Assembly (NCBI GenBank): GCA_964628805.1
Contig: CAZVOK010000001.1
Span: forward strand, 44,504-108,503
DNA length: 64,000 nt
From: an uncultured Candidatus Peribacteria bacterium
Lineage (GTDB): Bacteria; Patescibacteriota; Gracilibacteria; Peribacterales; Peribacteraceae
Direction of reading: 5' to 3'
Every line of letters starts with the position of its first letter. The stretch's first letter is position 1. Below are positions 3,927 through 63,262 of this stretch, in pieces. Both the position numbers and the translations under genes were made by a program. The notes below the pieces were generated by a model, which did no database searches, was not told the DNA's origin, and worked only from the letters and a program-made list of their open reading frames with translations.

Positions 3927-3956
3927 GGGAGCAGGCTTTCTGCCTGCGGTCCCGTG
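3927..3956. repeat. GC-hairpin module, identical 30-mer at 58231..58260
   Basis: gggagcaggctttctgcctgcggtcccgtg occurs identically at both sites. Each copy lies just after an intrinsic terminator. Confidence 0.85.
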
Positions 3957-4111
3957 TCTTTGGGTAAATCCGAATATCGACCCTTCGGTCTGACTCAGGA
4001 TCTATCTCAGATAACTGGCGTGTAGAATTATGGGTCGTACTGAGCCAAGCCGAAGTACGAAATTCGAAGGAAATTCAAAACTTGGAAAATTTTTAAACAA
4101 ACAAAACAGCT

Positions 4112-4215
4112 CACACAAACATCTCCCTCCCGGCGGGAGGGATTAAGGGAGGGGATTCCTACTCCTATAAAATCATCGTGATCCACCGCGGGCTGGAAAC
4201 CCGCTCTGAGGGTGG
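4112..4215. repeat. CA-spacer plus hairpin module (copy of 15911..15974), followed by a second hairpin
   Basis: cacacaaacatctccctcccggcgggagggattaagggaggggattcctactcc is roughly 85 percent identical (by eye) to the 15.9-kb copy. The hairpin ccaccgcgggctggaaacccgctctgagggtgg follows. Confidence 0.7.
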
Positions 4216-4317
4216 TGGTTATTGATGTAGTAATGAGCATTCCTACTCAACAAAATCTGAACAAATTATGTGTACAATTATTTCCACAAGGATTACTATC
4301 TGCCTATACTCTCGCGA

Positions 4318-7235: not shown

Positions 7236-7250
7236 GTAAAAATGGGGAAA

Positions 7251-7320
7251 GCGCGGCCTGCCAACCGTAGCTCAGCCGCAGCGAGCGAAGGTTGGAAGAT
7301 GTGGGGGTCGAGGGTGGGCA
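7251..7320. repeat. GC-hairpin module (ccaacc..ggttgg variant of the module found at 43730 and 58510)
   Basis: gcctgccaaccgtagctcagccgcagcgagcgaaggttgg parallels cccaccgtagctccagagagcgaaggtggg (43.7 kb) and ccctccgtagtccacagacgaaggaggg (58.5 kb). Confidence 0.6.
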
Positions 7321-7421
7321 TGAATGTGAAGAAAAGAATGACTGATTATTGCATTTTTTTTAGGTATAGAGGCTATCTATTAAAGTTGACTTATTTCAAT
7401 TTACAATTAAAGTATTAATTA

Positions 7422-8129
7422 ATGAGTAGAGAAATATTAGAAGAATATGGTGTAGATGAAGAGGCGTGGGAAAATGGATCTATTCCTGTAGATCCAATAT
7501 TGTATGCTGAAATACTATCAGTTAAACAAGAATTACTAGCAGTTATGGCGACAGCTCAACGAGGTATCGCTTCTCTGAGAAAGAAAAGAAATAAGAATAG
7601 AGTGGAGAAAATATGTAAATATCTCACAGGAAGATATAGGTTAGATCAATTAACAGGTACAAATTTTAGAACCATACACAAAATAATAGATTCATTGGCT
7701 ACATATTCAGATGATCCTGAAGTAGCTCATTTTTTACAGTACATAGATTATGCTCTGGAACATCTTACTGGTATCGAGGGTGAAGTTGGGCGTGGAGAAT
7801 CTTTGATGTATGCGCATGATCCTGATAATGACTGGCTAACGCTCCCTAAAGAATTGAGTGATGCAACTATAAGAAAAGAAATTTTACATGAGCTTCTTGG
7901 GAATCCTTTTCGGCCTGTCACTTGGCAGCCTGAATGGAGAACTCCTACTGTTATAGCTATCGCTCAAGGCATTTATGATGAACAGGCATTCGATCGTTTG
8001 CCCGTGATGGCAGACGCACTGGAGGATGCAGGCTGTGATTTCCTGCCTCTTCTACAGCATTGCCGTGACCACACTCGATGGCATATGCGTGGATGCTTTG
8101 CGGTAGAGGGCGCTTTAGGTAGAAATTAG
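7422..8129 (+). CDS. Hypothetical protein (AT-rich orphan gene with a conserved-looking C-terminal module)
   Basis: 235-aa ORF. The C-terminus reads LLGNPFRPVTW...IAQGIYDEQAFDRLPVMADALEDAGCD...LLQHCR...HMRGCFAV. The first 480 nt or so are visibly more AT-rich than the neighbouring genes. Confidence 0.6.
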   Translation: MSREILEEYGVDEEAWENGSIPVDPILYAEILSVKQELLAVMATAQRGIASLRKKRNKNRVEKICKYLTGRYRLDQLTGTNFRTIHKIIDSLATYSDDPEVAHFLQYIDYALEHLTGIEGEVGRGESLMYAHDPDNDWLTLPKELSDATIRKEILHELLGNPFRPVTWQPEWRTPTVIAIAQGIYDEQAFDRLPVMADALEDAGCDFLPLLQHCRDHTRWHMRGCFAVEGALGRN

Positions 8130-9864: not shown

Positions 9865-9936
9865 GGGATTGGGGGTTAGGGATTAGGGATTGGGAATGGA
9901 AGATTTCCAAAACACAGAGCGCGTTTTCTACGCGCG
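9864..9936. repeat. GGGATT-word arm starting at the glgP stop, followed by a GC-hairpin module
   Basis: gagggattgggggttagggattagggattgggaatgg comes first. Then cagagcgcgttttctacgcgcg, whose 19-mer core is identical to 43565..43587. Confidence 0.7.
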
Positions 9937-10002
9937 TTGCGAAGGTGTAGTAAATCCAATCTTCAGAAGACAAATCCTTTGAATCTACGGTACAGTGATC
10001 AC

Positions 10003-11410: not shown

Positions 11411-11447
11411 AATCATTCTCAATTTTCCATTCTCAATTTTCAATTTC
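11411..11447. repeat. Word-repeat arm (TTCTCAATTTTC words); complementary word set at 18233..18303
   Basis: aatcattctcaattttccattctcaattttcaatttc abuts the stop of the 11446..12312 gene. Confidence 0.6.
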
Positions 11448-12312
11448 ACCCCAGTCCTGCCGCAATCACAAAGTTCACAAGTGCGTAGCTGATGAGGATC
11501 ACGGCGAGCCCCGTGAGGGAACGGATGATGAGCGACTTTGACTTGGAAATCTCTTCATCGCGGCCGAAGTCCAGGACCATCATGGTACCGGCGTAGACCA
11601 CTACGATGACAGCGGCGAGTGCCATGAAGCTCAGGACGACGTTCAGTACATTCACAATAATCTGAATAATGGGTGCGGGTGTAGGCGTACCCGTGGCGCC
11701 GATGGCAACGGCCAAGAGTTCTTTTCCAAGGATGAGTACAATGCCTGCAGCCACGGCGTAGATCGCTTTGCGCATGGAAGCGATGCCATCTTCGTTATTC
11801 GCCTGAGCTACAGCTTTCACGGCAGTCGTGATGATCATCACAATGGCCAGCACTGCGGCGAGTGTCAGCACCCAGTTGATGATGCCGAGCACTTGTTCTT
11901 CCACAATAGGCACTCCGATGCTGGGGTTCTGCGCCACTTCTCCGCGCACACCATAAAATGCTGCAATGAACGGCTCTATCAGAAACACGAGGACGATGCC
12001 TCCAATACACGCACCGAAAATCTTCTTCACTTTCTCCAATCCATCATCTTCCTGAGCCGTGATCATGCGGAAGCTTGCGATGGCCAGTACCACGGATGCG
12101 AAAATGAAGATCATCGGACGAATGGCCAGCATGATGGTGTAGGCGATGGCCACAAATCCTCCCGAGGATGGACCGGTAAATCCGCCGAGGCCCGGTAGGG
12201 CTCCTCCTACACTGGAGATCACCGCATCAAATACTCCCTGTCCCAAAGCTACTTCCGGGAGGATTAGCAGAGCGAAGACGCACAAGGCCGATACGGACAA
12301 AGGAAACTTCAT
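11446..12312 (-). CDS. Polytopic membrane protein with a signal peptide and three 2-TM repeats
   Basis: 288 aa with signal peptide MKFPLSVSALCVFALLILPEVALG. Three units of TM - acidic/basic loop (AQEDDGLEKVKK, AQANNEDGIASMRK, FGRDEEISKSKS) - TM follow. Confidence 0.7.
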   Translation of the reverse strand: MKFPLSVSALCVFALLILPEVALGQGVFDAVISSVGGALPGLGGFTGPSSGGFVAIAYTIMLAIRPMIFIFASVVLAIASFRMITAQEDDGLEKVKKIFGACIGGIVLVFLIEPFIAAFYGVRGEVAQNPSIGVPIVEEQVLGIINWVLTLAAVLAIVMIITTAVKAVAQANNEDGIASMRKAIYAVAAGIVLILGKELLAVAIGATGTPTPAPIIQIIVNVLNVVLSFMALAAVIVVVYAGTMMVLDFGRDEEISKSKSLIIRSLTGLAVILISYALVNFVIAAGLG

Positions 12313-13088
12313 GAGAAATAGGTAATCAGCGAAGCGACTATCGAATAAGCAGCAATCACCACAGCGGTAGCGATGACGGTCACGCGGATGACGGTCTTTG
12401 CCGTGTCTTTCAAGGATTCATTGATGGACACCACGAGCATGATTCCGGCGATGACCACGGCAGTGACAGCCATGAGTCCAAAGATCGTCAGCATGAAGTT
12501 TGCAATACCAATCATCTCTTCGTTGATCACTCCTGCTCTGGCACCCGGTACCAGGGCTTCCAGGAGAGGATTGATGAGCAGCATAAGTGCGACACCTATA
12601 AATCCTATCACGAGCTGTTTTCGTGCTTTCTCCGTTTGATCTTCCTGCCCCTGTGATGCGATGAGACGCATGGCCTGGATCACGATGTTGGCAATAAGTG
12701 CCAGTGCCAGGAGCGCCTGGAAGTAAAAAATGACGTGACCCGCTGCAGTAGCTGCTGGTGCGGTCTGCACTATGCGACTCCCATTTCCTGCCTGGAATGT
12801 ACGAACCACCAAGTCTGCCAATCCCACCACCATGCCGCCTGTGATCACATAGTAAAAAGACTTTCGTGCATCAGCCACGGCTGCTTCGTCGTTACTGTAC
12901 AGCACCATGTTCAAGGAACTCGTCAGAAGGATCATCACCGCCAAAGCCACAAAGCCGATTTCCATGGCATCGATGATTTTATCCTGCACATATACCACGA
13001 GCCCCATGGCACCGCCTCCACCCCCCGTGCACGGCACGATGGCACACACGGGACCCAGGTTTGCCTGTATTGCTCCAGCGATATCCAT
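12309..13088 (-). CDS. Polytopic membrane protein, paralog of the downstream gene, three 2-TM repeats
   Basis: 259 aa. The loops SNDEAAVADARK, SQGQEDQTEKARK and SINESLKDTAKT each sit between hydrophobic helices. A 4-nt ATGA overlap joins it to the next gene. Confidence 0.7.
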   Translation of the reverse strand: MDIAGAIQANLGPVCAIVPCTGGGGGAMGLVVYVQDKIIDAMEIGFVALAVMILLTSSLNMVLYSNDEAAVADARKSFYYVITGGMVVGLADLVVRTFQAGNGSRIVQTAPAATAAGHVIFYFQALLALALIANIVIQAMRLIASQGQEDQTEKARKQLVIGFIGVALMLLINPLLEALVPGARAGVINEEMIGIANFMLTIFGLMAVTAVVIAGIMLVVSINESLKDTAKTVIRVTVIATAVVIAAYSIVASLITYFS

Positions 13089-13107: not shown

Positions 13108-13152
13108 GAAAATCTGTGATTCTTGAAGGGGCAAATTGGGCTCTTTTTGGCT

Positions 13153-13237
13153 TTAGGATGAGGGATTGGGGGTTTGGGATTAGGGATTAGATAAAGACAA
13201 AAAACCTAGTCCCCCAATCCCCAATCACAAACCCCTC
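13153..13237. repeat. GGGATT-word hairpin
   Basis: The left arm ttaggatgagggattgggggtttgggattagggattag pairs with the right arm ctagtcccccaatccccaatcacaaacccctc. Confidence 0.8.
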
Positions 13238-13253: not shown

Positions 13254-13946
13254 ATGACCACTTATCCCACCTCACAAAGCACCCCCATTACCCTCAATTC
13301 CTCAGTGGAAGGCCAAACATATGCCCTTTTGGCCCTCGCTTTAGGCCTCACGGTCGTAGGCGGATACATCGGCGCCTTGTTTGCTCCTGTCCTGTTTGCC
13401 ACTGGAGCGCAGCTGATTCTGCTCTTACTGCAGCTAGGCCTCATTATTTCCGCTCCCTGGTGGTCCCGCACATCGCCGTTGAATTACCTGATGTTCGTGC
13501 TTTTCCCAATCTTCTCCGGTATTTCCATCACGCCGTACATTCTTTCGGTGGTAGCGGGCTACAGCAACGGAACATCCATCCTCTTCAATGCGCTGGCCTC
13601 TACAGTGTTTATGGCCCTAGGAACGGCCGTATTCGCACGTACCACGTCTTTCCGCTTCTCCAGCATCGGCAGATGGCTGATTTTCGCTGTTTTCGGTCTG
13701 ATTGGCCTCGGAATTCTGCAGATCTTCTTTGCAGGACTGCGCACAGGCCCCATGGAACTCCTTATTTCAGGAGCTGGAATGGCCGTATTTGCCGCATTTT
13801 TTGCTTACGACATTCAGCGTCTGCAGGAACAAGGAAAGCTGGGTGCAAACCCCTTTATGCTCGCTTTAAGCCTGTATCTGGACCTCTTCAATCTCTTCTT
13901 GTACGTCTTGAGGTTTATGACGGCGTTGTCTGGAAATAGAGATTAG
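13254..13946 (+). CDS. Bax inhibitor-1/YccA family membrane protein
   Basis: 230 aa with about 7 TM segments. The C-terminus shows the family signature FAAFFAYDIQRL...LSLYLDLFNLFLYVLRF. Confidence 0.85.
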   Translation: MTTYPTSQSTPITLNSSVEGQTYALLALALGLTVVGGYIGALFAPVLFATGAQLILLLLQLGLIISAPWWSRTSPLNYLMFVLFPIFSGISITPYILSVVAGYSNGTSILFNALASTVFMALGTAVFARTTSFRFSSIGRWLIFAVFGLIGLGILQIFFAGLRTGPMELLISGAGMAVFAAFFAYDIQRLQEQGKLGANPFMLALSLYLDLFNLFLYVLRFMTALSGNRD

Positions 13947-14028
13947 GGGTTTGGGATTGGGGATTAGGACAATGGTGCCTTTTTTATTTTGAAATCCCAA
14001 TCCCTAACCCCCAATCCCCAACCCCTCT
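13941..14028. repeat. GGGATT-word hairpin overlapping the BI-1 stop codon
   Basis: The left arm gattaggggtttgggattggggattagg pairs with the right arm aaatcccaatccctaacccccaatccccaacccctc. Confidence 0.8.
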
Positions 14029-14286: not shown

Positions 14287-14381
14287 GAGGGTTAGGGATT
14301 GGGGATTTGGGATTAGGAAATCCTCATTATCCGATCTTCGTTTTACAAAAGTCCTAATCCCTAACCCTAATCCCCAATCCC
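14287..14381. repeat. GGGATT-word hairpin ending at the nusB ATG
   Basis: The left arm gagggttagggattggggatttgggattagg pairs with the right arm gtcctaatccctaaccctaatccccaatccc. Confidence 0.8.
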
Positions 14382-14783: not shown

Positions 14784-14893
14784 GATTGAACGTTAGGATT
14801 TAAAAGAAATAAAAGATTTAAAGGATTGAAAGGACAGGCTCTTGTTTTTCCTAATCCTTTAAATCTTTTAAATCCTTGCCATCCTTTAAATCT
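14781..14893. repeat. AAGGATT/TAAAGG-word hairpin starting at the nusB TAG; related arm at 62281
   Basis: The left arm taggattgaacgttaggatttaaaagaaataaaagatttaaaggattgaaagg pairs with the right arm cctaatcctttaaatcttttaaatccttgccatcctttaaatc. Confidence 0.75.
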
Positions 14894-15641: not shown

Positions 15642-15663
15642 AGTGAATAAAAGTTGTGTTCGG

Positions 15664-15974
15664 TTATTTTTAATCTCAGAGCGGGCGTTCCGCCCGCAGT
15701 CCCTTTGGAATAATTTTTTATATCTGGGAGCGGGTGTCCCACCCGCGGTCGTATTTGAAGCATCAGTCTCCGGTGTTCCCCCATCCCCCGACCCCTTCCC
15801 CCTTGCGAGGAGGAAGGGGAGAAAGACTTCAAAAAAGAATTGAAACAAACAATACACAAACATCCCCCCCTCTCCTCGCAAGGGGAGGGGGATAGGGGGT
15901 GGGGAACGCCCTACAAACACATACAAAACATCCCTCTCCCGGCGGGAGAGGTTAGGTGAGGGGATCCCTACTTC
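15664..15974. repeat. Array of GC-hairpin modules and CA-spacer modules
   Basis: The array contains cagagcgggcgttccgcccgca, gggagcgggtgtcccacccgcgg, ccccttcccccttgcgaggaggaagggg, acaaacatccccccctctcctcgcaaggggaggggg, and a copy of the 4112 module. Confidence 0.75.
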
Positions 15975-15982
15975 AATTCTTT

Positions 15983-41569: not shown

Positions 41570-42673
41570 ATGGCTCGACTCATCTTGGCTGACGGTTCTG
41601 TGTGGGAAGGGGAGTCCTTTGGCGCAGAAACCGATGCAGACGGAGAAGTGGTGTTCAATACAGGCATGGTGGGATACCCCGAAAGCCTTACAGATCCTAG
41701 CTACCGGGGGCAGATTTTAGTGTTTACGTACCCGCTCATCGGTAACTACGGCGTGCCGAGTGCGGACCTGAATGAATGGGGATTTTCCAAGAATTTTGAG
41801 AGTGAAGAGATTCAGATCCGCGGACTCATCGTCGCCACAAATAGTGAAGACTTCAGTCATCAGGCGGCTGTGAGCTCGCTTGGAAATTGGATGAAGCACC
41901 ACAATATTCCAGGAATCACCGGCATCGATACCCGCGCCCTTACGAAACTCCTTCGCGAACATGGAGTGATGCTTGGAAGAATTTCTCAGGATGATTCAAA
42001 AGATGGAAAAGATTTAAAGGATTTAAAAGATCCGAATGAGAATAATTTGGTTGCGGAAGTGAGCTGCAAGGAAGTGAAAGTGTATGAGCCGGAAAATGCG
42101 GGGGCAGATACGCTCACGGTCATCGCGTATGACTGTGGGATGAAGAGAAATATTTTGCGGAGCTTGCTCAAGAGGGGATTGAAAGTAGTTCGAGTTCCTT
42201 GGGATTTTGATATCACGACGTACGAGGGAAAAATTGATGGAGTTTTCTGCAGCAATGGTCCTGGAGATCCAAAGGCATGTGTGCCCACTATCAACGCACT
42301 CAAGTGGGCGATGGAAAAAAATATTGTGACCTTTGGAATTTGTTTGGGAAATCAGTTGCTGGCACTCGCAGCAGGAGGCGATACGTACAAGCTTCCCTAT
42401 GGACACCGCGGGGCCAATCAGCCGTGCATAGAAGAGGGGACGGAGCGCTGCATCATCACCTCGCAAAATCACGGATTCGCCGTGGATGAAAAATTACCCA
42501 AGGATTGGAACGTGTGGTTCCGCAATGCAAACGACGGAACGGTGGAAGGAGTGAAGCACGAGAGCGGCCGCTTCTTCTCCGTACAGTTCCATCCGGAAGC
42601 GACACCGGGACCGGAAGATGCGAACTACCTTTTTGATGCGTTTGTGAGGACGATGAATGAGGCGAGGGTTTAA
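41570..42673 (+). CDS. carA: Carbamoyl-phosphate synthase small (glutaminase) subunit
   Basis: VFNTGMVGYPESLTDPSYRGQILVFTYPLIGNYGV, GATase motif GICLGNQLLALA, and HGFAV. No carB gene is adjacent. Confidence 0.9.
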   Translation: MARLILADGSVWEGESFGAETDADGEVVFNTGMVGYPESLTDPSYRGQILVFTYPLIGNYGVPSADLNEWGFSKNFESEEIQIRGLIVATNSEDFSHQAAVSSLGNWMKHHNIPGITGIDTRALTKLLREHGVMLGRISQDDSKDGKDLKDLKDPNENNLVAEVSCKEVKVYEPENAGADTLTVIAYDCGMKRNILRSLLKRGLKVVRVPWDFDITTYEGKIDGVFCSNGPGDPKACVPTINALKWAMEKNIVTFGICLGNQLLALAAGGDTYKLPYGHRGANQPCIEEGTERCIITSQNHGFAVDEKLPKDWNVWFRNANDGTVEGVKHESGRFFSVQFHPEATPGPEDANYLFDAFVRTMNEARV

Positions 42674-42769
42674 GTAAGGTAGGTATGGTAGGTAAGGTAC
42701 GTACGGTAAGGACGAGATTTTTTCAAATCCCTACCTTACCTACCGTACTTACATTACCTACCTTACTTA
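42671..42769. repeat. GGTAAGG-word hairpin spanning exactly from the carA TAA to the TAA of the convergent gene
   Basis: The left arm taagtaaggtaggtatggtaggtaaggtacgtacggtaagg pairs with the right arm ccctaccttacctaccgtacttacattacctaccttactta. Confidence 0.8.
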
Positions 42770-43483
42770 AATGTATCCTTCCACATGCACATCCTCTTTC
42801 TGCAATCCCCATTTCTCTAACGCCAATTTCTTCACCTCCAGTGTCATCTGCGGATTGCCGCAGGCGTAAAGTTGCACGCCGGTGGCATCACGGATTAATT
42901 CTTCTAACACACTCTGCACACGACCCGTGTGTCCACTCCAGGAGCCAGAGGGTTGCGAGAGTGTGATGTGCAAAAAAAGTGCGGGGTGTTCTTTGGCAAG
43001 AGCTTCCAGTTCCTCTTTCCAGAATAGATCTTCCTCGGTACGCACGCCAAATACCAAATCTACTCGGCTGGGATTTTTTGCGTGAAGCAGCGACACAATG
43101 TGTGTGCGAAAGGGTGCTACTCCGGTACTGGTACCAGCGAAGATGTAGCGTGCCTCTACTGTGGGATCGATGATGAGTCGTCCAAACGGTCCCTGTACTC
43201 GCACCTCCGTTCCTACCTCCGCACGTTTTTCCACCCACTCACTTGCACGGCCGCCGGGGAGGAGACGGATGACGAACAAAAGGTCCGGTTCCTCTGCGGA
43301 AGAGGCGATGGAGAAAGCGCGAGTTTGGATGTCGGTGGGATTGTCTAGCAGTGGAATATCGAAGAGCAGATATTGCCCGGGTTTCCACGTGAGACCGTCC
43401 GGCTTGGAAAACCGCACTTCATACACATCCTTCGCGATGAGCTTTTTTTCCAGGCAGGTGAGGGTGTAGCTGGGGGTGGGCAT
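42767..43483 (-). CDS. Ferredoxin-NADP reductase-like FAD/NAD(P)-binding oxidoreductase
   Basis: FAD-binding RAFSIAS, NAD-binding GTSTGVAPF, and a C-terminal YACGNPQM. 238 aa, with no Fe-S Cys cluster. Confidence 0.75.
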   Translation of the reverse strand: MPTPSYTLTCLEKKLIAKDVYEVRFSKPDGLTWKPGQYLLFDIPLLDNPTDIQTRAFSIASSAEEPDLLFVIRLLPGGRASEWVEKRAEVGTEVRVQGPFGRLIIDPTVEARYIFAGTSTGVAPFRTHIVSLLHAKNPSRVDLVFGVRTEEDLFWKEELEALAKEHPALFLHITLSQPSGSWSGHTGRVQSVLEELIRDATGVQLYACGNPQMTLEVKKLALEKWGLQKEDVHVEGYI

Positions 43484-43502: not shown

Positions 43503-43807
43503 CAATTATTTCACATCCCAGAGCGGGCGTTCCGCCCGCATTGCTTTGCGATTATTTCGCCTCCGAGAGCGCGTTTTCTACGCGCGGTCGTTATAGGAGA
43601 ATCACACGGGAGGAAGCACCCCGTGATACTTTCTTTTGTCTATCCGACCTCGTCCTTCATAGAAAGTAGATACGAACAAGGCTACGCCGGGCAGGAAACC
43701 CTACTTTTAAAGAGGCCGCGTGCCCACCGTAGCTCCAGAGAGCGAAGGTGGGTGGGTTTGCCTCATGGGCTGTTCCCTCCACGCCGGTAGTAGGATTTGG
43801 TTTTTTT
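43503..43807. repeat. Composite structured repeat of about 300 nt, copy 1 (copy 2 at 58261..58592)
   Basis: Blocks shared with copy 2: caattattt..agagcgggc.ttc.gcccgcattgctttg, tactttcttttg.ctatcc.acct.cg.ccttcat, aaggctacg, ccgtag..gcgaagg, gctgttccctc.acg, tttggttt. Confidence 0.75.
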
Positions 43808-43854
43808 ATTTACAAAATTTCCTAAAATTTCGAATTTGTTTCGGATTTCTTCGT

Positions 43855-44640
43855 TCAAATCAATCCCCGAAACAAATCCTCCTCCTTACTTATCCCCGGC
43901 ACCCACCCTTCCCACTCTTTTACAGTAATTCCATGATCACGGATGATCACTGCAGGCGTGCTCTGTGCGGCGTTTCCCATAAGGAAATTGGCGGCTGTTG
44001 CCAATTGATCGGCGAGGGCTTCGGTGGTGATGCGAAGTTCCTTCCCAAAGAGGTCTTTCCTGCCGACTTGGCTTTGGAGCGGCTGAAATCCGCTGACGGT
44101 CATGGCGAATGCAGAGACTCCCGTGCGTCTGGGTTGGCAGTGGGAATCGGTGATGATGATGCCGATGCGAGGGGCGTGAGCCCCCTGCTCTTTTGGAAAG
44201 GATTCTTCCAGCGCGAGGCGCAGTGACATGGCGGATGCTACGGGATCTTTCGGCCATCCGATGGCGAAGTTTTTCTGCACGTTCGATTCGTCGAGCCCGG
44301 CGTTTGCAATGAGGATGGATCCCCGTGTGAGCCCCGCAGGAGTGACTTCCGTGAGGAGGGCTCCCGGGCACGCATTGATGATGCGTCCGTTCATCTTCTT
44401 TACCTCCTGCACTACGGCCTCGCAGAATGACGGGTTGCGTCCGGTTTCCTTGCTCCACTTGTTCGCCTCTTCTGAAGGGGAAAGCGCAGAGAGGTCGATG
44501 AGCGATCCTGCTGTCATCGATACGACTTTGGAAGATACGACGACAATGTCTTCTTCTTGAATAGTGGCATTCTCACGAAGAACCTTACTCAAGGCATCGC
44601 CTTGTTGCAGTACTGGTGTGTGAATGGGAATCAAAAGCAT
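43855..44640 (-). CDS. CofE-like (F420-0:gamma-glutamyl ligase family) protein
   Basis: IVVVSSKVVSM, ANAGLDESN and IIITDSHCQPRRTG resemble the CofE/FbiB N-domain. The ATG at 44640 (MLLIPIHT) fits better than the ORF-track start at 44706. Confidence 0.7.
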   Translation of the reverse strand: MLLIPIHTPVLQQGDALSKVLRENATIQEEDIVVVSSKVVSMTAGSLIDLSALSPSEEANKWSKETGRNPSFCEAVVQEVKKMNGRIINACPGALLTEVTPAGLTRGSILIANAGLDESNVQKNFAIGWPKDPVASAMSLRLALEESFPKEQGAHAPRIGIIITDSHCQPRRTGVSAFAMTVSGFQPLQSQVGRKDLFGKELRITTEALADQLATAANFLMGNAAQSTPAVIIRDHGITVKEWEGWVPGISKEEDLFRGLI

Positions 44641-44678
44641 GTGTGTCCCTTGGAAGGATAAGCATTGTATACCATTTG

Positions 44679-44767
44679 GAGACTTGAGACATGAGATCTG
44701 AGACATGAGAAATGAGCAGACTTCCTAATACATTCTCAAATCTCAAGTCTCAGGTCTCACATCTCAT
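44679..44767. repeat. GAGAC-word hairpin
   Basis: The left arm ggagacttgagacatgagatctgagacatgagaaatgag pairs with the right arm ttctcaaatctcaagtctcaggtctcacatctcat. Confidence 0.8.
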
Positions 44768-44854
44768 ATTGCTTTGACACTCGCTTCCCATCATGTCTCC
44801 CTCGCACTTCTGAATTTGGAGAGCGCTGCATCACAGTCTAGACTACCCGCCGAT

Positions 44855-47800
44855 ATGTCCTTCCCGCCCGCTTTTCGTAGAGTCGCGATCGGCCTTCTTC
44901 TGACGGTGGCGTTGGGTGTGGTGCTCATTCAGGGAAGTTCGTACTTCGGGCAGAACACAAATTTTTTGGGCCAGACCACGCCCGTGTATGAAGTCTGCGC
45001 TACCGCTACAGGTCCGGTGGCCGATTTATTGGCTGCATCGGCACAAAAATGTTGTTGGGACGAAACCACTCAAAGCCGCACCTTGCGCTGTAAGGAAGGG
45101 TGTCCGGCTGGTACGGTCCAATGTCCCGCGCTCACCACAGGTGCTTTAAATACGGCTTGCTGTGCTGAGGGTCAGGGATGCGGGAACGATGGCGGGGCAA
45201 ACTACTTCTGTACCGGCGATCCCACACCTCCTCCGCCTCCACCCTCCAGTGGCAGCAGTTCCTCGTGCGCCGAGGAAGGAGGAGGCTGCAGCATGACCTC
45301 CGGCGCCAATGGCGGATGTTGTGGAGGGCTTTCGTGCAGCAACGAAGGACCCGAGGATGGAAGCGGACCTTGCAGTCAGCCCGGAGGGTGTCCGGAAGGC
45401 ACAAGCTGTTCGGATTTCTTCGATCCGCCAACATGTTTTCCTTCCGGCGGAGGAGGAGCACCCATTGATGGTCACTGTAGTGCCCTTGGAGGCGGTGGAG
45501 GTGGCGGCGGAGATCCTGGTGGTCCTGCGCCCGCACCCAGCACCAGCCCTTCCCCAAGCCCTTCTCCAGGATTCCCCCCCTCTCCCATCGGCTCCAATCC
45601 TCCCTCACCTCCCAGTTTCCCTGCGCCCTCTACCTCCCCCATCTCCCCCAAGACTCCTCCTTCTCCTTCTCCCACCCCCTCTCCGGGTGGCCCCTCTCCG
45701 TCCCCAAGCACCTCTCCCTCCCCAAGCCCCAGCCCTACCCTCACTCCTCCGCCTCCCACACCTTCCTCCTCGTCGGCAGGGAGCATGCAGAGTGTGGGCA
45801 GTGCGTGTCAGACCACTCCTCCCACCTGTCCGCCCACTGCTCCTGCAGGATGCTCCTGGGGAATTCATATTGCAGGAGATGGCTGTCTCGTGTGTCAGAT
45901 GACCTGCAACCCTCCGGGCAGCAGTGCCGGGGGCGGAAGTTCCGTGAGCTCCCGTTCATCCACGGGGGTCTCCCGTTCGTCCTCATCCGCCTCTTCTCTT
46001 GGTGGAGGCGGTGGTGGAGGTGGTGGACCGACGACTGTTCCTCCTGCAGGTCCTACCCCCAACCCTCCCAGCGGATCTGCCTCTTCGGGAAGCTCCTCGT
46101 CCGACCGTATCGTCATCTCTCCGCTCCCAGGCAGCAGTGCATCATCACAGGGAGCGCGGTGTTTGGGTGTCGAGTGCGCCATCTTCGGCTGTCCCTTTGG
46201 TCAAACATGTCAGCAGGGTGCTCCTGGGGATTACCCGCAGTGCATGCGGTGCATTGATCCTACAAATCCCGGAAGCAGCTCCAGCAGTGTTGGCACCACC
46301 ACGGATCCTGGCTCTTCTTCCAGTGCCGGCTCCACCTCCTCCACCCTCCGCTGCACGGAAAACGCCTGCAGAGATGCCGGAGGCTGTCCGCTCTACTTCA
46401 ACTGCCGCGTGCTTCTCAATGGCACTCCGCCCAATTGCCACGTGTGTGAGCCTGTGGGTGCAAGCTCTGCGTCCGGTCCGGGTGGGTCTTCGGGGTCCAC
46501 CGGATCTTCTGGCTCCAATGGATCATCCGGATCAAGTGGTTCCACTGGATCTACAAGGTCGCAGGGATCTTCTGCCATCAGCGGATCGTCGCGTTCCTCG
46601 GTATCTTCTCGCGCTTCTTCCACCGGTCTCCCCACGGGTCAAACACTCTGCGGAGATGGCATCCGCCAAGCCGGAGAATCGTGCGATCTAGGATCCGTCT
46701 GTACCGGTAGCCCTGCTTCCTGCAATCGAATCCCAGGAACATTCGGCCTCACGTGCTTGTGTGATCCTCGCAACACTGCCACGTGTACCCCTCCTCCAGA
46801 CATGCTCTGGAATCAGGGATGTATGAACCCGCGTTGTGGGGACTCCGTTGTGAACAACATGATTACCTACAGAGGCCAGCAAGTGAACGGACAACTCATC
46901 CGTGAAGAGTGCGACGATGGGAACACGCGTGATGGCGATGGCTGCTCATCAGTCTGCGTCCGGGAATCCATCGGCGGTCCGCGCTGCGGCAACGGAAGGC
47001 TCGACTCTGGCGAACAGTGCGATGACGGGAATCAGCTGAATACGGATCTCTGCACCAATCAGTGCAGGCTGTCCGAGAGAGTAGCCACTGGCCCCACGCC
47101 TACGCCTGCTAGCACCCAGAGTGTGCTTCGCTGTGGTGATGGGGTAGTGACCGCTGGAGAAATGTGCGACAAGGGATCTGCCTGCACTTCTGATCCGGCG
47201 TCTTGCAATAGGCCCGTAGGCACACGCGGAGGAACCTGCACCTGCAATCCCGGGGATCCATCCTGCCCGCTTCTCCCGGGGATCAGCTGGACCAAAGGCT
47301 GCACGCAGGCGAAGTGCGGAGACTCTATTGTCAATAACTGGGCGACGTTTGCAGGAAAGGCTGTGAACTACGAAGGGCTCTCTGAAACCTGCGACAAAGG
47401 AGACTTAAACGGCAAGCCCGGAAGCGGCTGTTCGCAGACGTGCTCACTGGAAAACGCGGCTCTGTGCGGAAACAGCAAGATCGACCCCGGTGAAACCTGC
47501 GACCGCGGCGCTCAGAACGGCAAGCCGGGAGTGGCGTGCACGTTGTCCTGCCAGTCACTCAATCTCGCGCTCTGCGGAAATCAAATTCTGGATTCCGGAG
47601 AAGAGTGTGATGGCACCGAAGGATGCAGTGCCACCTGCCAGAGGGAGGGCTCTTCTCCTCTGTGTGGAAACGAACAAATAGACCCCGGTGAAGAGTGTGA
47701 CTCCACGCAGAATTGTTCCAGTAGTTGTCTGCGTACAGAAGGTGTGTGCGGCGATGGAGTGGTACAGAAACTTTTGGGCGAGCAGTGCGAACCGTCTACA

Positions 47801-48229
47801 CACGATCCCTCGCTCGTCTACGGCTGCGGACAGGATTGCCGGCACCAGAGTGAGTTCTGCGGAAACAGTGTGCTCGACATCGGCGAACAGTGTGACGATG
47901 GAGCACTGAATAATGATTCTCTCCCGGACCGCTGCAGAACCAATTGCTCCTTCTCCCGCTGCGGCGATGCCATTTTGGATTCCGCAGAGCAGTGCGATGA
48001 CGGCAATCATCGCGCAGGTGATGGATGTGACTTGTACTGCCGCAGAGAGAGCGGATCTCCATCGGACTCTTTGGCTCAGACCATCGACTTCCCGGTTCTC
48101 ACCGGAGACCTCACGCCTATCGCGACGTCTCATCCTCCTGCTGGGCAGACAGGCCCTGCTGCCCTGGCGGTAATGGCGGCGGGGGCCGCGGCGGGGTGGG
48201 CGTGGGTGCGACGGAAAAGGAATAAATGA
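44855..48229 (+). CDS. Large cysteine-rich-repeat surface protein (Myxococcus-type Cys-rich repeats), N-terminal TM/signal segment, Pro/Ser/Gly low-complexity region, C-terminal TM anchor
   Basis: At least 8 repeats of the form CG(D/N)G..D.GE.CD.G......C...C. PSPSPSP and poly-Gly tracts are present. The C-terminus reads PPAGQTGPAALAVMAAGAAAGWAWVRRKRNK. The ORF track starts at a TTG (44774); the ATG at 44855 precedes the TM segment. Confidence 0.8.
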   Translation: MSFPPAFRRVAIGLLLTVALGVVLIQGSSYFGQNTNFLGQTTPVYEVCATATGPVADLLAASAQKCCWDETTQSRTLRCKEGCPAGTVQCPALTTGALNTACCAEGQGCGNDGGANYFCTGDPTPPPPPPSSGSSSSCAEEGGGCSMTSGANGGCCGGLSCSNEGPEDGSGPCSQPGGCPEGTSCSDFFDPPTCFPSGGGGAPIDGHCSALGGGGGGGGDPGGPAPAPSTSPSPSPSPGFPPSPIGSNPPSPPSFPAPSTSPISPKTPPSPSPTPSPGGPSPSPSTSPSPSPSPTLTPPPPTPSSSSAGSMQSVGSACQTTPPTCPPTAPAGCSWGIHIAGDGCLVCQMTCNPPGSSAGGGSSVSSRSSTGVSRSSSSASSLGGGGGGGGGPTTVPPAGPTPNPPSGSASSGSSSSDRIVISPLPGSSASSQGARCLGVECAIFGCPFGQTCQQGAPGDYPQCMRCIDPTNPGSSSSSVGTTTDPGSSSSAGSTSSTLRCTENACRDAGGCPLYFNCRVLLNGTPPNCHVCEPVGASSASGPGGSSGSTGSSGSNGSSGSSGSTGSTRSQGSSAISGSSRSSVSSRASSTGLPTGQTLCGDGIRQAGESCDLGSVCTGSPASCNRIPGTFGLTCLCDPRNTATCTPPPDMLWNQGCMNPRCGDSVVNNMITYRGQQVNGQLIREECDDGNTRDGDGCSSVCVRESIGGPRCGNGRLDSGEQCDDGNQLNTDLCTNQCRLSERVATGPTPTPASTQSVLRCGDGVVTAGEMCDKGSACTSDPASCNRPVGTRGGTCTCNPGDPSCPLLPGISWTKGCTQAKCGDSIVNNWATFAGKAVNYEGLSETCDKGDLNGKPGSGCSQTCSLENAALCGNSKIDPGETCDRGAQNGKPGVACTLSCQSLNLALCGNQILDSGEECDGTEGCSATCQREGSSPLCGNEQIDPGEECDSTQNCSSSCLRTEGVCGDGVVQKLLGEQCEPSTHDPSLVYGCGQDCRHQSEFCGNSVLDIGEQCDDGALNNDSLPDRCRTNCSFSRCGDAILDSAEQCDDGNHRAGDGCDLYCRRESGSPSDSLAQTIDFPVLTGDLTPIATSHPPAGQTGPAALAVMAAGAAAGWAWVRRKRNK

Positions 48230-48258: not shown

Positions 48259-48358
48259 AAGTGACAAGTTCGAAGTGCGAAGTTCCAAGTGTGGAGTTTC
48301 TTTTTTTATAAAAAAAATTCCTTTGTTGGAACTTAGAACTTTGCACTTGGAACTTCAG
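48259..48358. repeat. Palindromic word-repeat element, second copy of 2300..2370
   Basis: The left arm aagtgacaagttcgaagtgcgaagttccaagtg pairs with the right arm ttggaacttagaactttgcacttggaacttcag. The loop is tttttttataaaaaaaa. Confidence 0.8.
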
Positions 48359-48910: not shown

Positions 48911-49025
48911 TGGAAGGTAGTTGAGTGGGTGGTTAAAGTATGGAAGGTAAGGAGGGTACGGAATGTAAGGATTGTGCATTGGAAAAACCTTCCTTACCTT
49001 CATTACGTTCCATACCTTCCGTACA
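48911..49025. repeat. GGTAAGG-word hairpin (imperfect)
   Basis: gtatggaaggtaaggagggtacggaatgtaagg faces ccttccttaccttcattacgttccataccttccgtac. Confidence 0.65.
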
Positions 49026-49558: not shown

Positions 49559-49840
49559 ATGAAGATTGCTCGATTGCTTCCGGTTTTTCTATGTCTATCA
49601 CTTTTTGGCTGCAGTGAGCCAAATACTAATCAAGCAGGGAATTCACTTGGAACGTTGAAACAGACAACCGGCAGTGCTGCTACAACGTTGCGAGATACTT
49701 TGGAGATGACGAAGAGGGGGATTGATGATGCCAAGAAAACTGCGGAAGAAGTAAAAAAACGAGCGGAGCAGGTAAGTGATGGGGTGAAGAAAGTGGGGGA
49801 GGGGATTTCGAAGGTTAAAAATGGATTGAATGGAGAGTGA
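49559..49840 (+). CDS. Putative lipoprotein
   Basis: Signal peptide with a lipobox, MKIARLLPVFLCLSLFGCS. 93 aa. Confidence 0.6.
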   Translation: MKIARLLPVFLCLSLFGCSEPNTNQAGNSLGTLKQTTGSAATTLRDTLEMTKRGIDDAKKTAEEVKKRAEQVSDGVKKVGEGISKVKNGLNGE

Positions 49841-49860
49841 ATATTTGGTGTGTCTATTAG

Positions 49861-49961
49861 GTCTGGTATGTAAGGTAGGTAAGGTAAGGAACTTATACAT
49901 TTTTAATGTCTTTTAATTGCCCTACCATACGTACCTTACTTACCGTACCTACCTTACCTAA
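49861..49961. repeat. GGTAAGG-word hairpin
   Basis: The left arm gtctggtatgtaaggtaggtaaggtaagg pairs with the right arm cctaccatacgtaccttacttaccgtacctaccttaccta. Confidence 0.75.
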
Positions 49962-49982
49962 CCAAAAAACCACAAATTAATC

Positions 49983-53966: not shown

Positions 53967-53969
<3 letters not shown>

Positions 53970-54045
53970 ACTTGAGATAGGAGACCTGAGACTTGAGTAG
54001 TCTCTGTCTCCTCTCTAGTCTTAAATCTCGAGTCTCACGTCTCAA
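53967..54045. repeat. GAGAC-word hairpin beginning with the rpoC TAG stop codon; homologous to 54518..54596
   Basis: tagacttgagataggagacctgagacttgag faces tctctgtctcctctctagtcttaaatctcgagtctcacgtctcaa. Confidence 0.8.
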
Positions 54046-54097: not shown

Positions 54098-54520
54098 ATG
54101 CCAACTATCAACCAGCTCATCCGCAGTCGTCGCCGAGACAAGCGCAAGAAGTCTAAGGCTCCAGCGCTTCAAATGGCTTGGAACTCGCTCCACATGCGCG
54201 ATGTTCCGCTCCCGAAGGGTTCCCCCTTCAAGCGCGGCGTATGCATCAAAGTAACCACCATGACGCCTAAAAAGCCAAACTCCGCCTTGCGTAAGATCGC
54301 CCGCGTGCGTCTGACCAACGGTCACGAAGTGAAGGCCTACATCATGGGAGAAGGTCACAATCTGCAGGAACACAGCGTAGTGATGGTCCGCGGAGGTCGC
54401 GTGAAAGACCTTCCAGGAGTGCGTTACCACATTGTGCGCGGAGTGCTGGATACCGAGGGTGTCCGCGACCGCAAGCAAGGCCGCAGCCGTTACGGTGCCA
54501 AGCGTCCTAAAGCGAAATAG
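54098..54520 (+). CDS. rpsL: 30S ribosomal protein S12
   Basis: MPTINQLIR...[22 protein letters not shown]...[18 protein letters not shown]. The ORF-track start at 53993 lies in the repeat. Confidence 0.95.
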
Positions 54521-54596
54521 ACTTGAGACCTGAGACCCGAGTAGTCTCTGTCTCTCCTCTAAAACTCAAGTCTCTAGTCTCAAATCTCTAGTCTCC
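54518..54596. repeat. GAGAC-word hairpin beginning with the rpsL TAG stop codon
   Basis: tagacttgagacctgagacccgagtag faces tctctgtctctcctctaaaactcaagtctctagtctcaaatctctagtctcc. Confidence 0.8.
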
Positions 54597-55443: not shown

Positions 55444-55482
55444 CAAATCTCAAGTCTCACATCTCTAGTTTCAAGTCTCCTC
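55444..55482. repeat. GAGAC-word arm (C-rich strand only)
   Basis: caaatctcaagtctcacatctctagtttcaagtctcctc. Confidence 0.5.
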
Positions 55483-56062: not shown

Positions 56063-58168
56063 ATGGACCTCCGAAACGTACGCAATATTGGAATTATTGC
56101 CCACATCGATGCGGGTAAAACCACTACGTCCGAGCGTATCCTGTACTACACAGGCCGCACGCACAAAATCGGCGAAGTGCACGAGGGAGAGGCCACCATG
56201 GACTGGATGGAACAGGAGCGCGAGCGCGGTATCACCATCACATCTGCCGCTACACAGTGCCACTGGCATGCCAAGGATATTACGGGTCAGGAGATCGATT
56301 GCACCATCAACCTCATCGATACTCCGGGACACGTGGACTTCACAGCCGAAGTGGAGCGCAGTCTTCGCGTGCTGGACGGAGGAGTAGTGGTGTTCGATGG
56401 ATCCCAGGGAGTGGAGCCGCAGTCCGAAACCGTGTGGCGCCAGGCCGACAAGTACGATGTGCCACGCCTCGCTTTCGTCAATAAAATGGACAAGACCGGA
56501 GGAGACTTCTTTATGTCCCTAGATAGCATCTACGACCGCCTCAGCAAGAACGCGGTTCCCATCCAGCTTCCTATCGGCGCGGAGAGCGAGTTCTCCGGCA
56601 TCATCGATCTCATTGATCAAAAGGCTTACACGTTCACTGGAAAAATGGGTGAGACACGCGAGGAGATTGCCATTCCAGAAGATATGAAAAACCAGGTGCA
56701 GGAGTACCGCCTGACCCTCATGGAAAAAGTGGCGGAGAACGCCGGCGATGAATTCATGGATCTCTTCTTGCAGAATAATGCTCTGACGGATGATGAGCTG
56801 AAGAGGGGACTCCGTGCTGCAACGGTTGCCAACAAAATCTACCCCGTGCTCTGCGGATCGTCCCTTCAGAACATGGGTGTGCAGCTGGTGCTGGATGCGG
56901 TAGTAGCCTACCTGCCATCTCCTACGGACATCCCTGCTATCAAGGCTACAGACTTGAAGACCAATCAGGAGATCGCCCGTCATGCTACGAACGATGAACC
57001 GATGACCGCTCTGGCCTTCAAGATTGCCACCGATCCGTTCGTGGGAAAGCTCGTCTTCATCCGTGTGTACTCCGGAGTACTGAAGTCCGGAAGCTACGTG
57101 CTCAACTCCCGCACGGGAAACAAGGAACGAATCGGACGCCTCGTGCGCTTGCATGCCAACTCTCGCCAGGAAATCGATCAGATTGAAGCAGGAGACATTG
57201 GGGCTGTCATCGGTCTCAAGGACACTCGCACCGGAGACACTATCTGCGATGAAGCGAACCCTGTGCAGCTGGAGTCCATCACCTTCGCAGAGCCGGTGAT
57301 CATGTTGGCTGTAGAGCCAAAGACTAAGGCCGATCAGGAAAAAATGGGTATCGCCCTTCAAAAATTGGTTGAAGAAGATCCCACACTGCGCGTGCGCACC
57401 GATGAAGAGACGGGTCAGACGATCCTCGCAGGAATGGGAGAGCTGCACCTGGATATCATCACCGACCGCATGAAGCGTGAGTTCAAAGTGGAAAGCAATG
57501 TAGGGAAGCCACAGGTGGCCTACCGCGAGACCATCCAAAAAGAAGTGCAGCACGAAGAGAAATACATCAAGCAGTCCGGAGGCCGCGGTCAGTACGGTCA
57601 CGTGGTGTTTACGCTTCGCCCTCAGGAACCGGGAAAGGGTTATACCTTCACCAACAACATCGTGTCCGGCCGCATCCCACGCGAATTCATCACTCCGTGC
57701 GACAAGGGATTCCAGGAAGGAATGACGCGTGGAATTCAGGCAGGATACCCGGTAGTAGATGTAGAAGTGGATCTCCAGGACGGTTCCTACCACGATGTGG
57801 ACAGTAACGAATTCGCCTTCAAAATGGCCGCATCCATCGGTTTCCAGGAAGCTGCTCGCAAGGCGGATCCTGTGATCTTGGAGCCGATCATGAAAGTGGA
57901 AGTGGTGACTCCAGAGCAGTTCTTCGGAGATATCATGGGAGACATCAACTCCCGCCGCGGAACAGTGCTGGAAACCTCCGACCGTGGAACGGCAAAAGTG
58001 GTGATGGCTCACGTGCCGCTCTCCGAAATGTTCGGGTACGCTACGGACATGCGCTCTATGACCCAAGGTCGTGCGAGCTACTCCATGGAGCCAAGTCACT
58101 ACGCCAAAGTGCCAAAGAATAAGGCAGATGAGATTGCGGCGGAGAGAGCAGGGACAGCCAAGAGATAG
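56063..58168 (+). CDS. fusA: Elongation factor G
   Basis: [17 protein letters not shown] and NKMDK. Full-length, 701 aa. Confidence 0.97.
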
Positions 58169-58190
58169 TTTGAAAATTGTAATTCTAAAA

Positions 58191-58218
58191 GAGCAGCGTG
58201 GGCTGCTCTTTTTGTTTT
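58191..58218 (+). terminator. Rho-independent terminator of fusA
   Basis: gagcagc gtgg gctgctc followed by tttttgtttt. Confidence 0.75.
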
Positions 58219-58230
58219 ATCTATTGATTC

Positions 58231-58592
58231 GGGAGCAGGCTTTCTGCCTGCGGTCCCGTGCAATTATTTTCATCCCCCAGAGCGGGCATTCTGCCCGCAT
58301 TGCTTTGGTATAACTTCATCTCTGGGAGCGGGTGTGTCCCACCCGCGGTTGTTTCACGAGAACCTCATCTGCAGCCACCAAAGGTCGGTACTTTCTTTTG
58401 GCTATCCACCTTCGCCCTTCATTCTTCTAGGCCACTAGAAGGCTACGGTGGACAGGCCCGCTCTCTGTCTTTATTGGTATTGGGAGGAGGGGGAAGGTGG
58501 CCGCCTGCCCTCCGTAGTCCACAGACGAAGGAGGGTGGTTTTGGGTTGTGAAGTAAGCTGTTCCCTCGACGTGTCTGGGAGAGTTTGGTTTG
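58231..58592. repeat. GC-hairpin module (30-mer identical to 3927..3956) followed by copy 2 of the ~300-nt composite structured repeat
   Basis: See 43503..43807. The shared blocks appear in the same order and orientation. Stems differ by paired substitutions. Confidence 0.75.
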
Positions 58593-58653
58593 AGCAAAAG
58601 GGAGGCAATAGCAAAGACAGCAATCTAGTTCCCAGTTCCTAGTACACGAGTTC

Positions 58654-59193
58654 CTAAGCTAAAGACCCCCTCAACTCCTCACCCCTTCGCGCCAATTCCC
58701 GTACACACTTTTTATTCAACTCAAGTAATTCTCCAGACAATTTTTCAAGACTAGATCCTGTGATGGCAGGTGGATTATTCAGTGAAAAAATTTCTCGTAG
58801 CAGCGGACCGCTTTGTTCGTGGTATTGGGTGAGCTTATTGCAGGTGTCTTCATCAATCACAAAGTGTTTCAGAGCAGCTCCGTAGAGCTCACGGTCGGGC
58901 ACTCCGCTGGGTAAAGTCTCGCGGGACATGAGTGTGGCGAAGAGGGCTGGGTCCTGGAACGCTGTATCGCCTTTGGAGACTGCCTCCTTCATGCTGGCTA
59001 CCCAGAGTGTTTGCCGTAAGACGGCATGAAGCTGATGGATGCTGAGGGAGATCACTTCCGCGTAATGCTTCTGACCAAATGCCGCATCAATCTCTTGGAG
59101 GAGACTCTGCTGATGGGCAATGAATTCCTGGAGTCGCGTAAGGCACTCTTGTACTTGTGCTTGCTGTGTCGTATCTAAGGTCAGTGCTGTCAT
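58654..59193 (-). CDS. Hypothetical protein
   Basis: ORF downstream of the protease gene on the same strand. The ATG at 59193 is preceded by cttctcccctctctct. No motif. Confidence 0.5.
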   Translation of the reverse strand: MTALTLDTTQQAQVQECLTRLQEFIAHQQSLLQEIDAAFGQKHYAEVISLSIHQLHAVLRQTLWVASMKEAVSKGDTAFQDPALFATLMSRETLPSGVPDRELYGAALKHFVIDEDTCNKLTQYHEQSGPLLREIFSLNNPPAITGSSLEKLSGELLELNKKCVRELARRGEELRGSLA

Positions 59194-59230
59194 AGAGAGA
59201 GGGGAGAAGTACCTGTAAGACACCTAGAGC

Positions 59231-63115: not shown

Positions 63116-63150
63116 AGCGAGTGTGCGGAATTGTAACTTGTGGTTTATTC

Positions 63151-63262
63151 GAATACTGGATTACTGGAATACTAGAGTACTGGGAAAGGCAAAAGAATCC
63201 GAACCTAAATCCTAAAGCCCCAGCCCCCCAATATTCCAGTACTCTATTACTCTAGTATTCCC
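63151..63262. repeat. ATACTGGA-word hairpin
   Basis: The left arm gaatactggattactggaatactagagtactggg pairs with the right arm ccaatattccagtactctattactctagtattcc. Confidence 0.75.

Follow-up and report, generated by a model that had tools for sequence, protein, structure and literature searches.

A probable REP/BIME/REPIN-like mosaic repeat dispersed in a Candidatus Peribacteria genome

Short repeats of bacterial intergenic regions have been described as several systems. Repetitive extragenic palindromes (REPs), bacterial interspersed mosaic elements (BIMEs) and REP-associated tyrosine transposases (RAYTs) are defined in PMC2817692 and PMC3733652, and REPINs are inverted REP doublets (Bertels and Rainey, PMC3116915, PMC3337134). 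The BOX element of Streptococcus pneumoniae is built as boxA-boxB(n)-boxC (PMC3049150), and has been read as parasitic yet able to affect co-transcribed genes. Here we describe a repeated element of about 300 nt in a stretch of 64,000 nt (the window) from an uncultured Candidatus Peribacteria bacterium (contig CAZVOK010000001.1 of assembly GCA_964628805.1, positions 44,504 to 108,503). We consider it probable, at roughly 0.65, that this element is a lineage-specific, dispersed, multi-copy, non-coding mosaic repeat resembling REPs, BIMEs and REPINs in a genome of the candidate phyla radiation (CPR). This reading is based on the independence of its modules, covariation in their stems, their multi-copy state, the unrelated contexts of the copies, an empty site in a relative, and a RAYT flanked by one of the modules in another relative.

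The two copies in the window, A (43503-43807) and B (58261-58607), are homologous, non-coding and in the same orientation. A MAFFT alignment gave 78% column identity with a single 24-nt indel, blastn matched them at 72% across 162 nt (E 8.6e-20) and at 76% across 75 nt (E 5e-10), and an nhmmer profile of the copies placed A at 43503-43829 and B at 58261-58610. Copy A is bordered by an FNR-like gene (42767-43483, minus strand) and an F420-ligase-like gene (43855-44706, minus strand). Copy B follows fusA (56063-58168, plus strand) and its 11-bp terminator (58187-58212), and is followed in turn by a convergent open reading frame (ORF) of 189 aa (58654-59223, minus strand). A protein-coding reading was ruled out, since mismatches between A and B are spread evenly over codon positions (38/39/39), indel lengths are not divisible by three, and the segments matched by tblastx switch frame and carry stops. 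A 97-aa ORF spanning copy B had no match in the protein database. The original prediction had reported two copies at these sites with a shared series of ordered blocks, in these gene contexts and with no ORF conserved between them, and all of this was recovered, including every listed block. Its account of the extent of the repeat was borne out in part: the 300-nt copies are real, but copy B runs from about 58224 to about 58607, the added stretch being an extra unit of the kind we call H, and the copies are mosaics rather than single units.

Each copy comprises, in order, two or three tandem H units, a variable spacer, a head-to-head pair of units termed P' (minus strand) and P (plus strand), and a 3' block. 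The spacers separating modules are variable. The element of about 300 nt is thus an ordered mosaic of smaller repeats and not one indivisible unit. Its parts are given below, with bit scores from two covariance models, R1 (built from P and used for P and P') and R2 (the search model for H).

43503 to 43550, plus strand: copy A, unit H1, leader CAATTATTTCACATCCCA and hairpin GAGC-GGGCG-TTC-CGCCC-GCATT, stem 43523-43539 (R2, 56.6 bits)
43549 to 43596, plus strand: copy A, unit H2, stem GCGCGT/ACGCGC at 43569-43585 (alignment, pair counts)
43597 to 43631, plus strand: copy A, variable spacer containing a local hairpin CACGGG/CCCGTG, absent from copy B as a conserved feature (alignment)
43632 to 43701, minus strand: copy A, P', a degenerate inverted P-like unit (R1, 6.8 bits, weak; homologous by alignment to P' of copy B)
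43713 to 43763, plus strand: copy A, P, CCTG-CCCACC-GTA-GCTC-CAGA-GAGC-GAA-GGTGGG, hairpin 43723-43752 (R1, 69 bits)
43769 to 43805, plus strand: copy A, 3' block GCTGTTCCCTCCACG...GGATTTGGTTT, with the family boundary near 43805 (alignment, nhmmer)
58215 to 58261, plus strand: copy B, extra unit H0, straight after the fusA terminator (repeat family D12; R2, 42.7 bits)
58262 to 58309, plus strand: copy B, unit H1, stem GCGGGCA/TGCCCGC (R2, 53.8 bits; pair counts)
58308 to 58357, plus strand: copy B, unit H2, stem GCGGGTG/CACCCGC with a 5-nt loop (alignment)
58394 to 58463, minus strand: copy B, P', reading GGCCTG-TCCACC-GTAGCC, then 24 nt with a hairpin of their own, then GGCGAA-GGTGGA (R1, 27.5 bits)
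58498 to 58546, plus strand: copy B, P, CCTG-CCCTCC-GTA-GTC-CACA-GAC-GAA-GGAGGG (R1, 62.4 bits; pair counts)
58553 to 58607, plus strand: copy B, 3' block GCTGTTCCCTCGACG...TTTGGTTT plus tail (a third copy, described below, also stops at 58607)

H units are direct tandem repeats of 46-49 nt. In each, a leader rich in A and T (consensus AATTATTTCATCCCC) precedes a G+C hairpin of 6-7 bp, with invariant GAGC on one side and GCGGT on the other. There are two such units in copy A and three in copy B, and the window holds 10 in total, all intergenic. Over 12 distinct units, 95% of the cells of the 7-bp stem are paired. Double changes occur in 4 of the 7 pairs (14 cells), a score that none of 500 shuffles reached, and sliding the 3' partner by 1-3 columns lowers pairing to 27-49%. 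The H2 stem of copy A differs from that of copy B with pairing kept. H units also occur away from the composite.

15661 to 15757, plus strand: solo doublet of H1 and H2 lacking the P'/P core, with a different MITE-like repeat after it (R2, 53.4 and 53.0 bits)
3911 to 3958, plus strand: solo H after a long terminator hairpin (R2, 45.5 bits)
4177 to 4224, minus strand: solo H, inverted (R2, 44.7 bits)
9899 to 9946, plus strand: solo H between two plus-strand genes (R2, 43.2 bits)
7251 to 7306, plus strand: solo P with stem CCAACC...GGTTGG (R1, 58.7 bits)

The doublet was matched by nhmmer with an E-value of 2e-16 over the first 100 profile positions only. The unit at 3911-3958 is the nearest copy of H0 of copy B and, like it, lies 3' of a terminator.

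The P unit has the consensus CCTG-CCNNCC-GTA-GCTC-loop-GAGC-GAA-GGNNGG, in which two helices of 6 and 3-4 bp flank an invariant 3x3 internal loop GTA/GAA. Pairing reaches 97.5%, and both-sided changes are found in 4 of 10 pairs among four distinct sequences. The palindrome criterion for REPs, a short imperfect stem-loop of about 20-40 bp with stems kept across copies, therefore describes both H and P. Solo P is also found 5' of fusA in a different Peregrinibacteria species (locus L064 at 7402-7452, and locus L065), and a loose end of the assembly graph in run X11 carries a further stem variant, CCCGCC. The inverted unit P' is clear in copy B, where its E-value is 2e-7 locally and 6e-5 over 143 kb. 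In copy A it holds the previously listed blocks TACTTTCTTTTGTCTATCC, CCTTCAT and AAGGCTACG, of which the third is CGTAGCCTT in reverse complement. Likewise, the block aaggctacg is the reverse complement of the P half CGTAGCC, and acct-cg-ccttcat that of the P half CGAAGG. GGCTACG and CGTAGY appear to pair over a long range, as do CCACCTTCG and CGAAGGNGG, because the core is a head-to-head P'/P doublet. This doublet is present in three copies, clearly in B and in the third copy (27.5/62.4 bits) and weakly in A (6.8/69 bits). The composite closes with a conserved 3' element, GCTGTTCCCTC-ACG...TTTGGTTT. A loose end of the assembly graph at 43805 marks where another copy diverges. A tRNA-derived origin was considered for P, as GTAGCTCAG resembles a tRNA D-arm, and was rejected when no tRNA model matched there.

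The original prediction had taken paired changes in these stems as a sign of a structured RNA of about 300 nt. Single-sequence folds of A and B scored z of -3.3 and -3.0 against shuffles on the plus strand, and -3.4 and -3.0 on the minus strand; because both strands fold equally well, neither a strand nor an RNA is identified by this measure. RNAalifold on the three copies returned a covariation term of +0.7 kcal/mol, with many long-range pairs broken and the H2 hairpin sacrificed. Helices common to A and B contained 11 compensatory pairs compared with 4.1 +/- 2.3 in column shuffles, and the excess was mainly local; the convincing pairs belong to H1 and P, with H2 lost through alignment gaps. 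All supported covariation thus lies within H and P, and no global fold is supported by the three copies. As REP-type DNA repeats are expected to show compensatory change, such change alone is no sign of an RNA gene. Over A and B, Rfam in E-value mode gave chance-level matches only (E of at least 0.4, far under gathering scores), and within the window only two tRNAs, located elsewhere, reached the gathering threshold. Known families, including ωRNA/HEARO-type RNAs, riboswitches and introns, were accordingly rejected. A CRISPR-like array was also rejected, given that the 47-nt period comprises only 2-3 units and that the 'repeats' differ in sequence. In two RNA runs, one perfect contig of 256 nt (X19) and one of 186 nt (X20) both fell inside fusA; these runs contain almost nothing of this organism, and depth was 0 over the element and the neighboring genes alike.

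The composites could be genes for a structured small RNA (sRNA) of about 300 nt, present in multiple copies as independent transcription units and acting in trans by titrating a protein through the H hairpins or the GUA/GAA loop of P. The covariation in H and P fits such genes, as do the location of both modules on one strand of the composite, the occurrence of G-U rather than A-C in the sense orientation (H pair 29-35 and the P' stem of copy A), the T-rich tails that make the H hairpins terminator-like on the plus strand, the conserved blocks between stems, the fold z of about -3 and the excess of compensatory pairs. Against these, no promoter-like site common to the copies was found, both strands fold equally well, the consensus-fold covariation term is +0.7, Rfam gave no match, the modules are also found singly and in different combinations, and the element is not kept in place in relatives. 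Genomes in this lineage are about 1 Mb, for which 10-25 copies of a trans-acting sRNA would be an unusual number. None of the lines of evidence tested specifically supports a trans-acting sRNA family, and we regard one as improbable. A related proposal is that P is a new Peribacteraceae RNA motif, present in at least two species at unrelated loci, and that the H-H-P'-P composite is a transcribed multi-copy structured RNA presenting protein-binding hairpins, as opposed to inert mobile DNA. In sequence, the invariant symmetric GUA/GAA internal loop may resemble loop-E or sarcin-ricin-like loops. If true, this RNA would join a very small number of candidate regulatory RNAs known from CPR bacteria; we think it unlikely by a wide measure.

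Of the original claims on structure, the compensatory changes themselves are true: GCGGGCG/CGCCCGC versus GCGGGCA/TGCCCGC is present in the H1 stem, and CCCACC..GGTGGG versus CCCTCC..GGAGGG is present in P together with CCAACC..GGTTGG at 7261-7295. What they were taken to show is not supported, in that the supported covariation is confined to short palindromic modules found alone elsewhere. The Rfam search that had been called for found no family for either copy, the view that the element is not a cis-regulator of one particular gene gains support, and of the options left by the prediction, the evidence favors a structured mobile element.

The window sequence is present in wastewater metagenomes, and copy number was estimated from Logan unitigs of two runs (about 11x coverage) mapped on the loci. 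With flanks at a depth of 10-12, element blocks reached 40-108 at 97% identity or above (4-10x the flanks), and the summed element depth at 80% identity or above was 120-300 (10-25x the flanks). These depths suggest about 5-20 copies of each block. Unique unitigs halt at the borders of the element, at 43547 and 43797 in copy A and at 58253, within H0, and 58578 in copy B; as the unique unitig of B restarts at 58578 (k=31), the repeat ends near 58607. At high stringency the multi-copy blocks of copy A are 43513-43554, 43597-43652, 43681-43764 and 43779-43834, joined by single-copy junctions, and copy A is therefore a unique combination of shared blocks. One unitig, 43709-43764, corresponds to P and has 5-10x the flank depth, while the H2 block is single-copy at 97% identity or above (depth 12-20). 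In H2 of copy B, 2 nt at 58332 are missing from most other metagenome copies.

A third full copy was found on contig CAZPUU010000005.1 (L009), 99.6% identical to B over 282 nt with an A-like 3' tail. Its 5' flank differs from that of B, its neighbor is a Sua5 gene in place of fusA, and it lies at the extreme end of the contig; its 5' junction was seen again in a contig of the independent run X10. A scan of genome and metagenome contig collections with TACTTTCTTTTGNCTATCC returned 29 and 32 matches, all due to chance except L009. A search with the L009 transposase yielded no long contig other than L009 itself, and the extra 9 kb of the L009 contig contained no further copy. The L009 record is titled 'uncultured Gammaproteobacteria bacterium', yet carries the H, P and C-rich repeat families of this window, and its taxonomic label looks wrong.

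The closest database relatives of the elongation factor G (EF-G) encoded by fusA are 88% identical and belong to Candidatus Peregrinibacteria / Peribacteraceae. The composite was found at none of seven fusA-centered loci of relatives with 85-88% EF-G identity, including L063, L064, L066 and L069. In L069, fusA is followed by a 191-aa homologue of the 189-aa ORF (minus strand) and by HtrA (minus strand), and the 207-nt spacer holds a terminator and no element; with its matching gene order, L069 is an empty site. H units were detected by R2 in two relatives, L068 (13137-13185, minus strand, 36.5 bits) and L070 (9252-9300, plus strand, 33.7 bits). Beside the latter lies a 145-aa gene (9319-9756, minus strand). 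It scores 89.1 bits with the NCBIfam model NF047646, 'REP-associated tyrosine transposase', whose curated cutoff is 80, and also matches Pfam Y1_Tnp. This RAYT is flanked by the H unit at 9252-9300 and an inverted H-like unit (9797-9846, minus strand), with a third H-like unit further left (9206-9255). A RAYT between inverted H units is the arrangement known as a REPtron (PMC2817692, PMC3733652). L070 is contig JACPYA010000072.1 of assembly GCA_016196295.1, and its RAYT sits between rpsG and fusA. In L064 and L065, the solo P hairpin occupies the region where L070 has the RAYT.

The positions of H also suit another explanation, in which the modules serve the host as cis-acting RNA elements of 3' untranslated regions (UTRs) and operon spacers, for termination or protection from 3' exonucleases, and were multiplied by recombination rather than active transposition. 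Most H units stand directly 3' of a gene or terminator and share its orientation (3929, 9917, 15679/15728, 58233-58326 and L009 7481 on the minus strand), REPs are reported mostly 3' of coding regions and between convergent or co-directional genes (PMC3733652), and the H hairpins fit a loose terminator pattern. However, copy A is antisense to both neighbors on the strand where H would terminate, and a strong 11-bp fusA terminator already stands upstream of copy B. Near-identical copies at unrelated loci and the empty site of the relative point to recent spread, and the RAYT association in L070 to an enzyme-driven origin. We find it doubtful that host service accounts for the repeat, although a cis-acting role in 3' UTRs is compatible with a mosaic repeat as a secondary effect.

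A classical miniature inverted-repeat transposable element (MITE), that is, an internally deleted derivative of an insertion sequence (IS) with a DDE transposase, moved via terminal inverted repeats, was weighed as well. A full-length IS with a DDE_Tnp_4 transposase of 319 aa is present in L009/L067 (about 6240-7450), and in L009 inverted H units lie just outside both of its ends (6176-6223, plus strand; 7473-7520, minus strand). A true MITE-like derivative of this IS, with 40-nt C-rich/G-rich inverted ends of the same type, adjoins the solo H doublet at 15780-15904. These associations are the case for a MITE. Nevertheless, the composite ends show no inverted-repeat similarity beyond chance (best match 7-8 against a shuffled mean of 7.0-7.5), no direct repeats indicative of a target-site duplication flank the composite, and the C-rich/G-rich terminal inverted repeats of the IS lie within H units and are unrelated to the composite ends. 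A MITE origin of the composite is very improbable indeed.

Compared with the described systems, the composite shares with REPs and BIMEs modules that are short, extragenic, imperfect palindromes with compensatory stems, multi-copy and clustered in mosaics, and H, like REPs, is mostly found downstream of genes. The regular spacing of H and its accompanying motifs are also BIME-like. Unlike REPs, P has GTAG inside the hairpin at the internal loop and not at the end, each H includes a conserved leader rich in A and T, the element resides in a CPR bacterium, and the 5-20 copies per block suggested by unitig depth are far under the >100 per genome of classical REPs (PMC2817692). The core resembles a REPIN in its head-to-head P'/P arrangement with a 35-50-nt spacer, its units being able to pair together. 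It differs in that the left unit has degenerated strongly (R1 scores of 27.5 bits in B and 6.8 in A versus 62-69 for P), that P' carries an insertion of 24-29 nt, and that P also occurs as singlets. Like BOX, the composite is a modular, ordered structure of 100-400 nt with one internal module variable in number (here two or three H), is intergenic, non-coding and species-restricted, and has extensive predicted secondary structure. There is no sequence relation to BOX, BOX modules have no RAYT link, and BOX expression has been shown by RNA-seq whereas the present element is known from DNA only. For an ordered architecture with a variable number of units, BOX is the nearest functional parallel. 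The element works like REP-type mosaic repeats, and strict membership in the GTAG-REPs is not claimed.

Under the mosaic-repeat reading, the H units would be REP-type elements recognized as single-strand DNA hairpins and presumably spread by a RAYT from another part of this genome. The palindromic modules may be kept since the hairpin is what the mobilizing or processing machinery recognizes. Larger mosaics could form by insertion beside existing units together with recombination or gene conversion among copies, which would explain identical blocks of 40-80 nt joined by unique junctions, and the composite itself may spread as a unit. Hairpins read through from neighboring genes might have secondary effects as 3'-UTR stabilizers or weak terminators, as for REP and BOX; on the plus strand, the H hairpins with their T-rich tails bear a loose resemblance to weak terminators.

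Several observations weigh against this reading. No RAYT or other transposase was found in the window among the 30 of about 52 long ORFs scanned. The link to a RAYT was seen in another species, whose fusA is 87% identical, and involves H alone; no enzyme was linked to P or the 3' block, and no P-flanked RAYT was found. H has no terminal GTAG or CGTC tag (tag as described in PMC3733652), and the H units of the composite are direct tandem repeats with a period of 46-49 nt rather than alternating as in BIMEs, only P'/P being inverted. The copy number rests on metagenome unitig depth, and one block had depths of 51 in run X1 and 108 in run X3 where the flanks were equally deep; part of the copies may thus come from co-occurring relatives. 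There are only three full copies, two of them nearly identical, which leaves room for a conserved global fold, and the excess of compensatory pairs is not wholly due to H1 and P.

Other features were observed around the H units. A hairpin of about 20 bp followed by a T-run (3844-3917) lies directly 5' of the solo H at 3911-3958, within a 760-nt gap (3512-4269) that has no ORF of at least 90 aa and no Rfam match. A 52-nt repeat with the hairpin CCCTCCCGGCGGGAGGG occurs at 4117-4168 and 15926-15977 (83% identical) and adjoins H units at both sites. GC skew in the window, which bears on orientation bias relative to replication, is weak and of mixed sign.

Elsewhere in the window, many long inverted repeats lie between genes, with arms of 21-47 nt that are 72-92% complementary and consist of short, periodic, low-complexity motifs. 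The sites are 42669-42771, 48935-49024 and 49840-49978; 13149-13234, 13941-14026 and 14288-14381; 2300-2366 and 48259-48355; 14795-14893; 63146-63261; and 44680-44760, 53968-54043, 54519-54595 and 55444-55479. The motifs, one per locus group, are GTAAGGTAGG, GGGATTGGGG (TTAGGG-like), AAGTTCCAAGT, GATTTAAAGGA, TACTGGAATAC and AGACTTGAGAC. These repeats are placed like giant bidirectional terminator hairpins, which is unusual, and they may be more novel than the composite itself. Among the genes, 44774-48229 encodes a secreted or anchored protein of 1151 aa that has linkers rich in Pro and Ser and about ten Cys-rich 'CGNxxxDxGExCD' repeats, the source of the direct-repeat families D4 and D7; faint Pfam matches assign its homologue in relatives to DUF4215. 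Two adjacent minus-strand ORFs of 288 and 259 aa (11446-13088) have a T4SS_pilin match that is weak but above cutoff. Exact look-ups of window proteins mostly returned no record, and one led to a 2-kb Logan contig only.

CPR bacteria (Patescibacteria) have small genomes that are usually called streamlined. The window contrasts with this picture, its intergenic regions being full of several hairpin-repeat families, one of which appears to be RAYT-linked in a related genome. The finding opens no long-standing question. The literature searched contained no REP/RAYT or REPIN systems of CPR bacteria, and the family would therefore extend the known range of such elements. Repeats of this kind would explain why short-read metagenome-assembled genomes of these organisms break at such sites, as in L009, where the contig ends within a copy. 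For annotation, the implication is that covariation in palindromic repeats should not be counted as evidence of an RNA gene.

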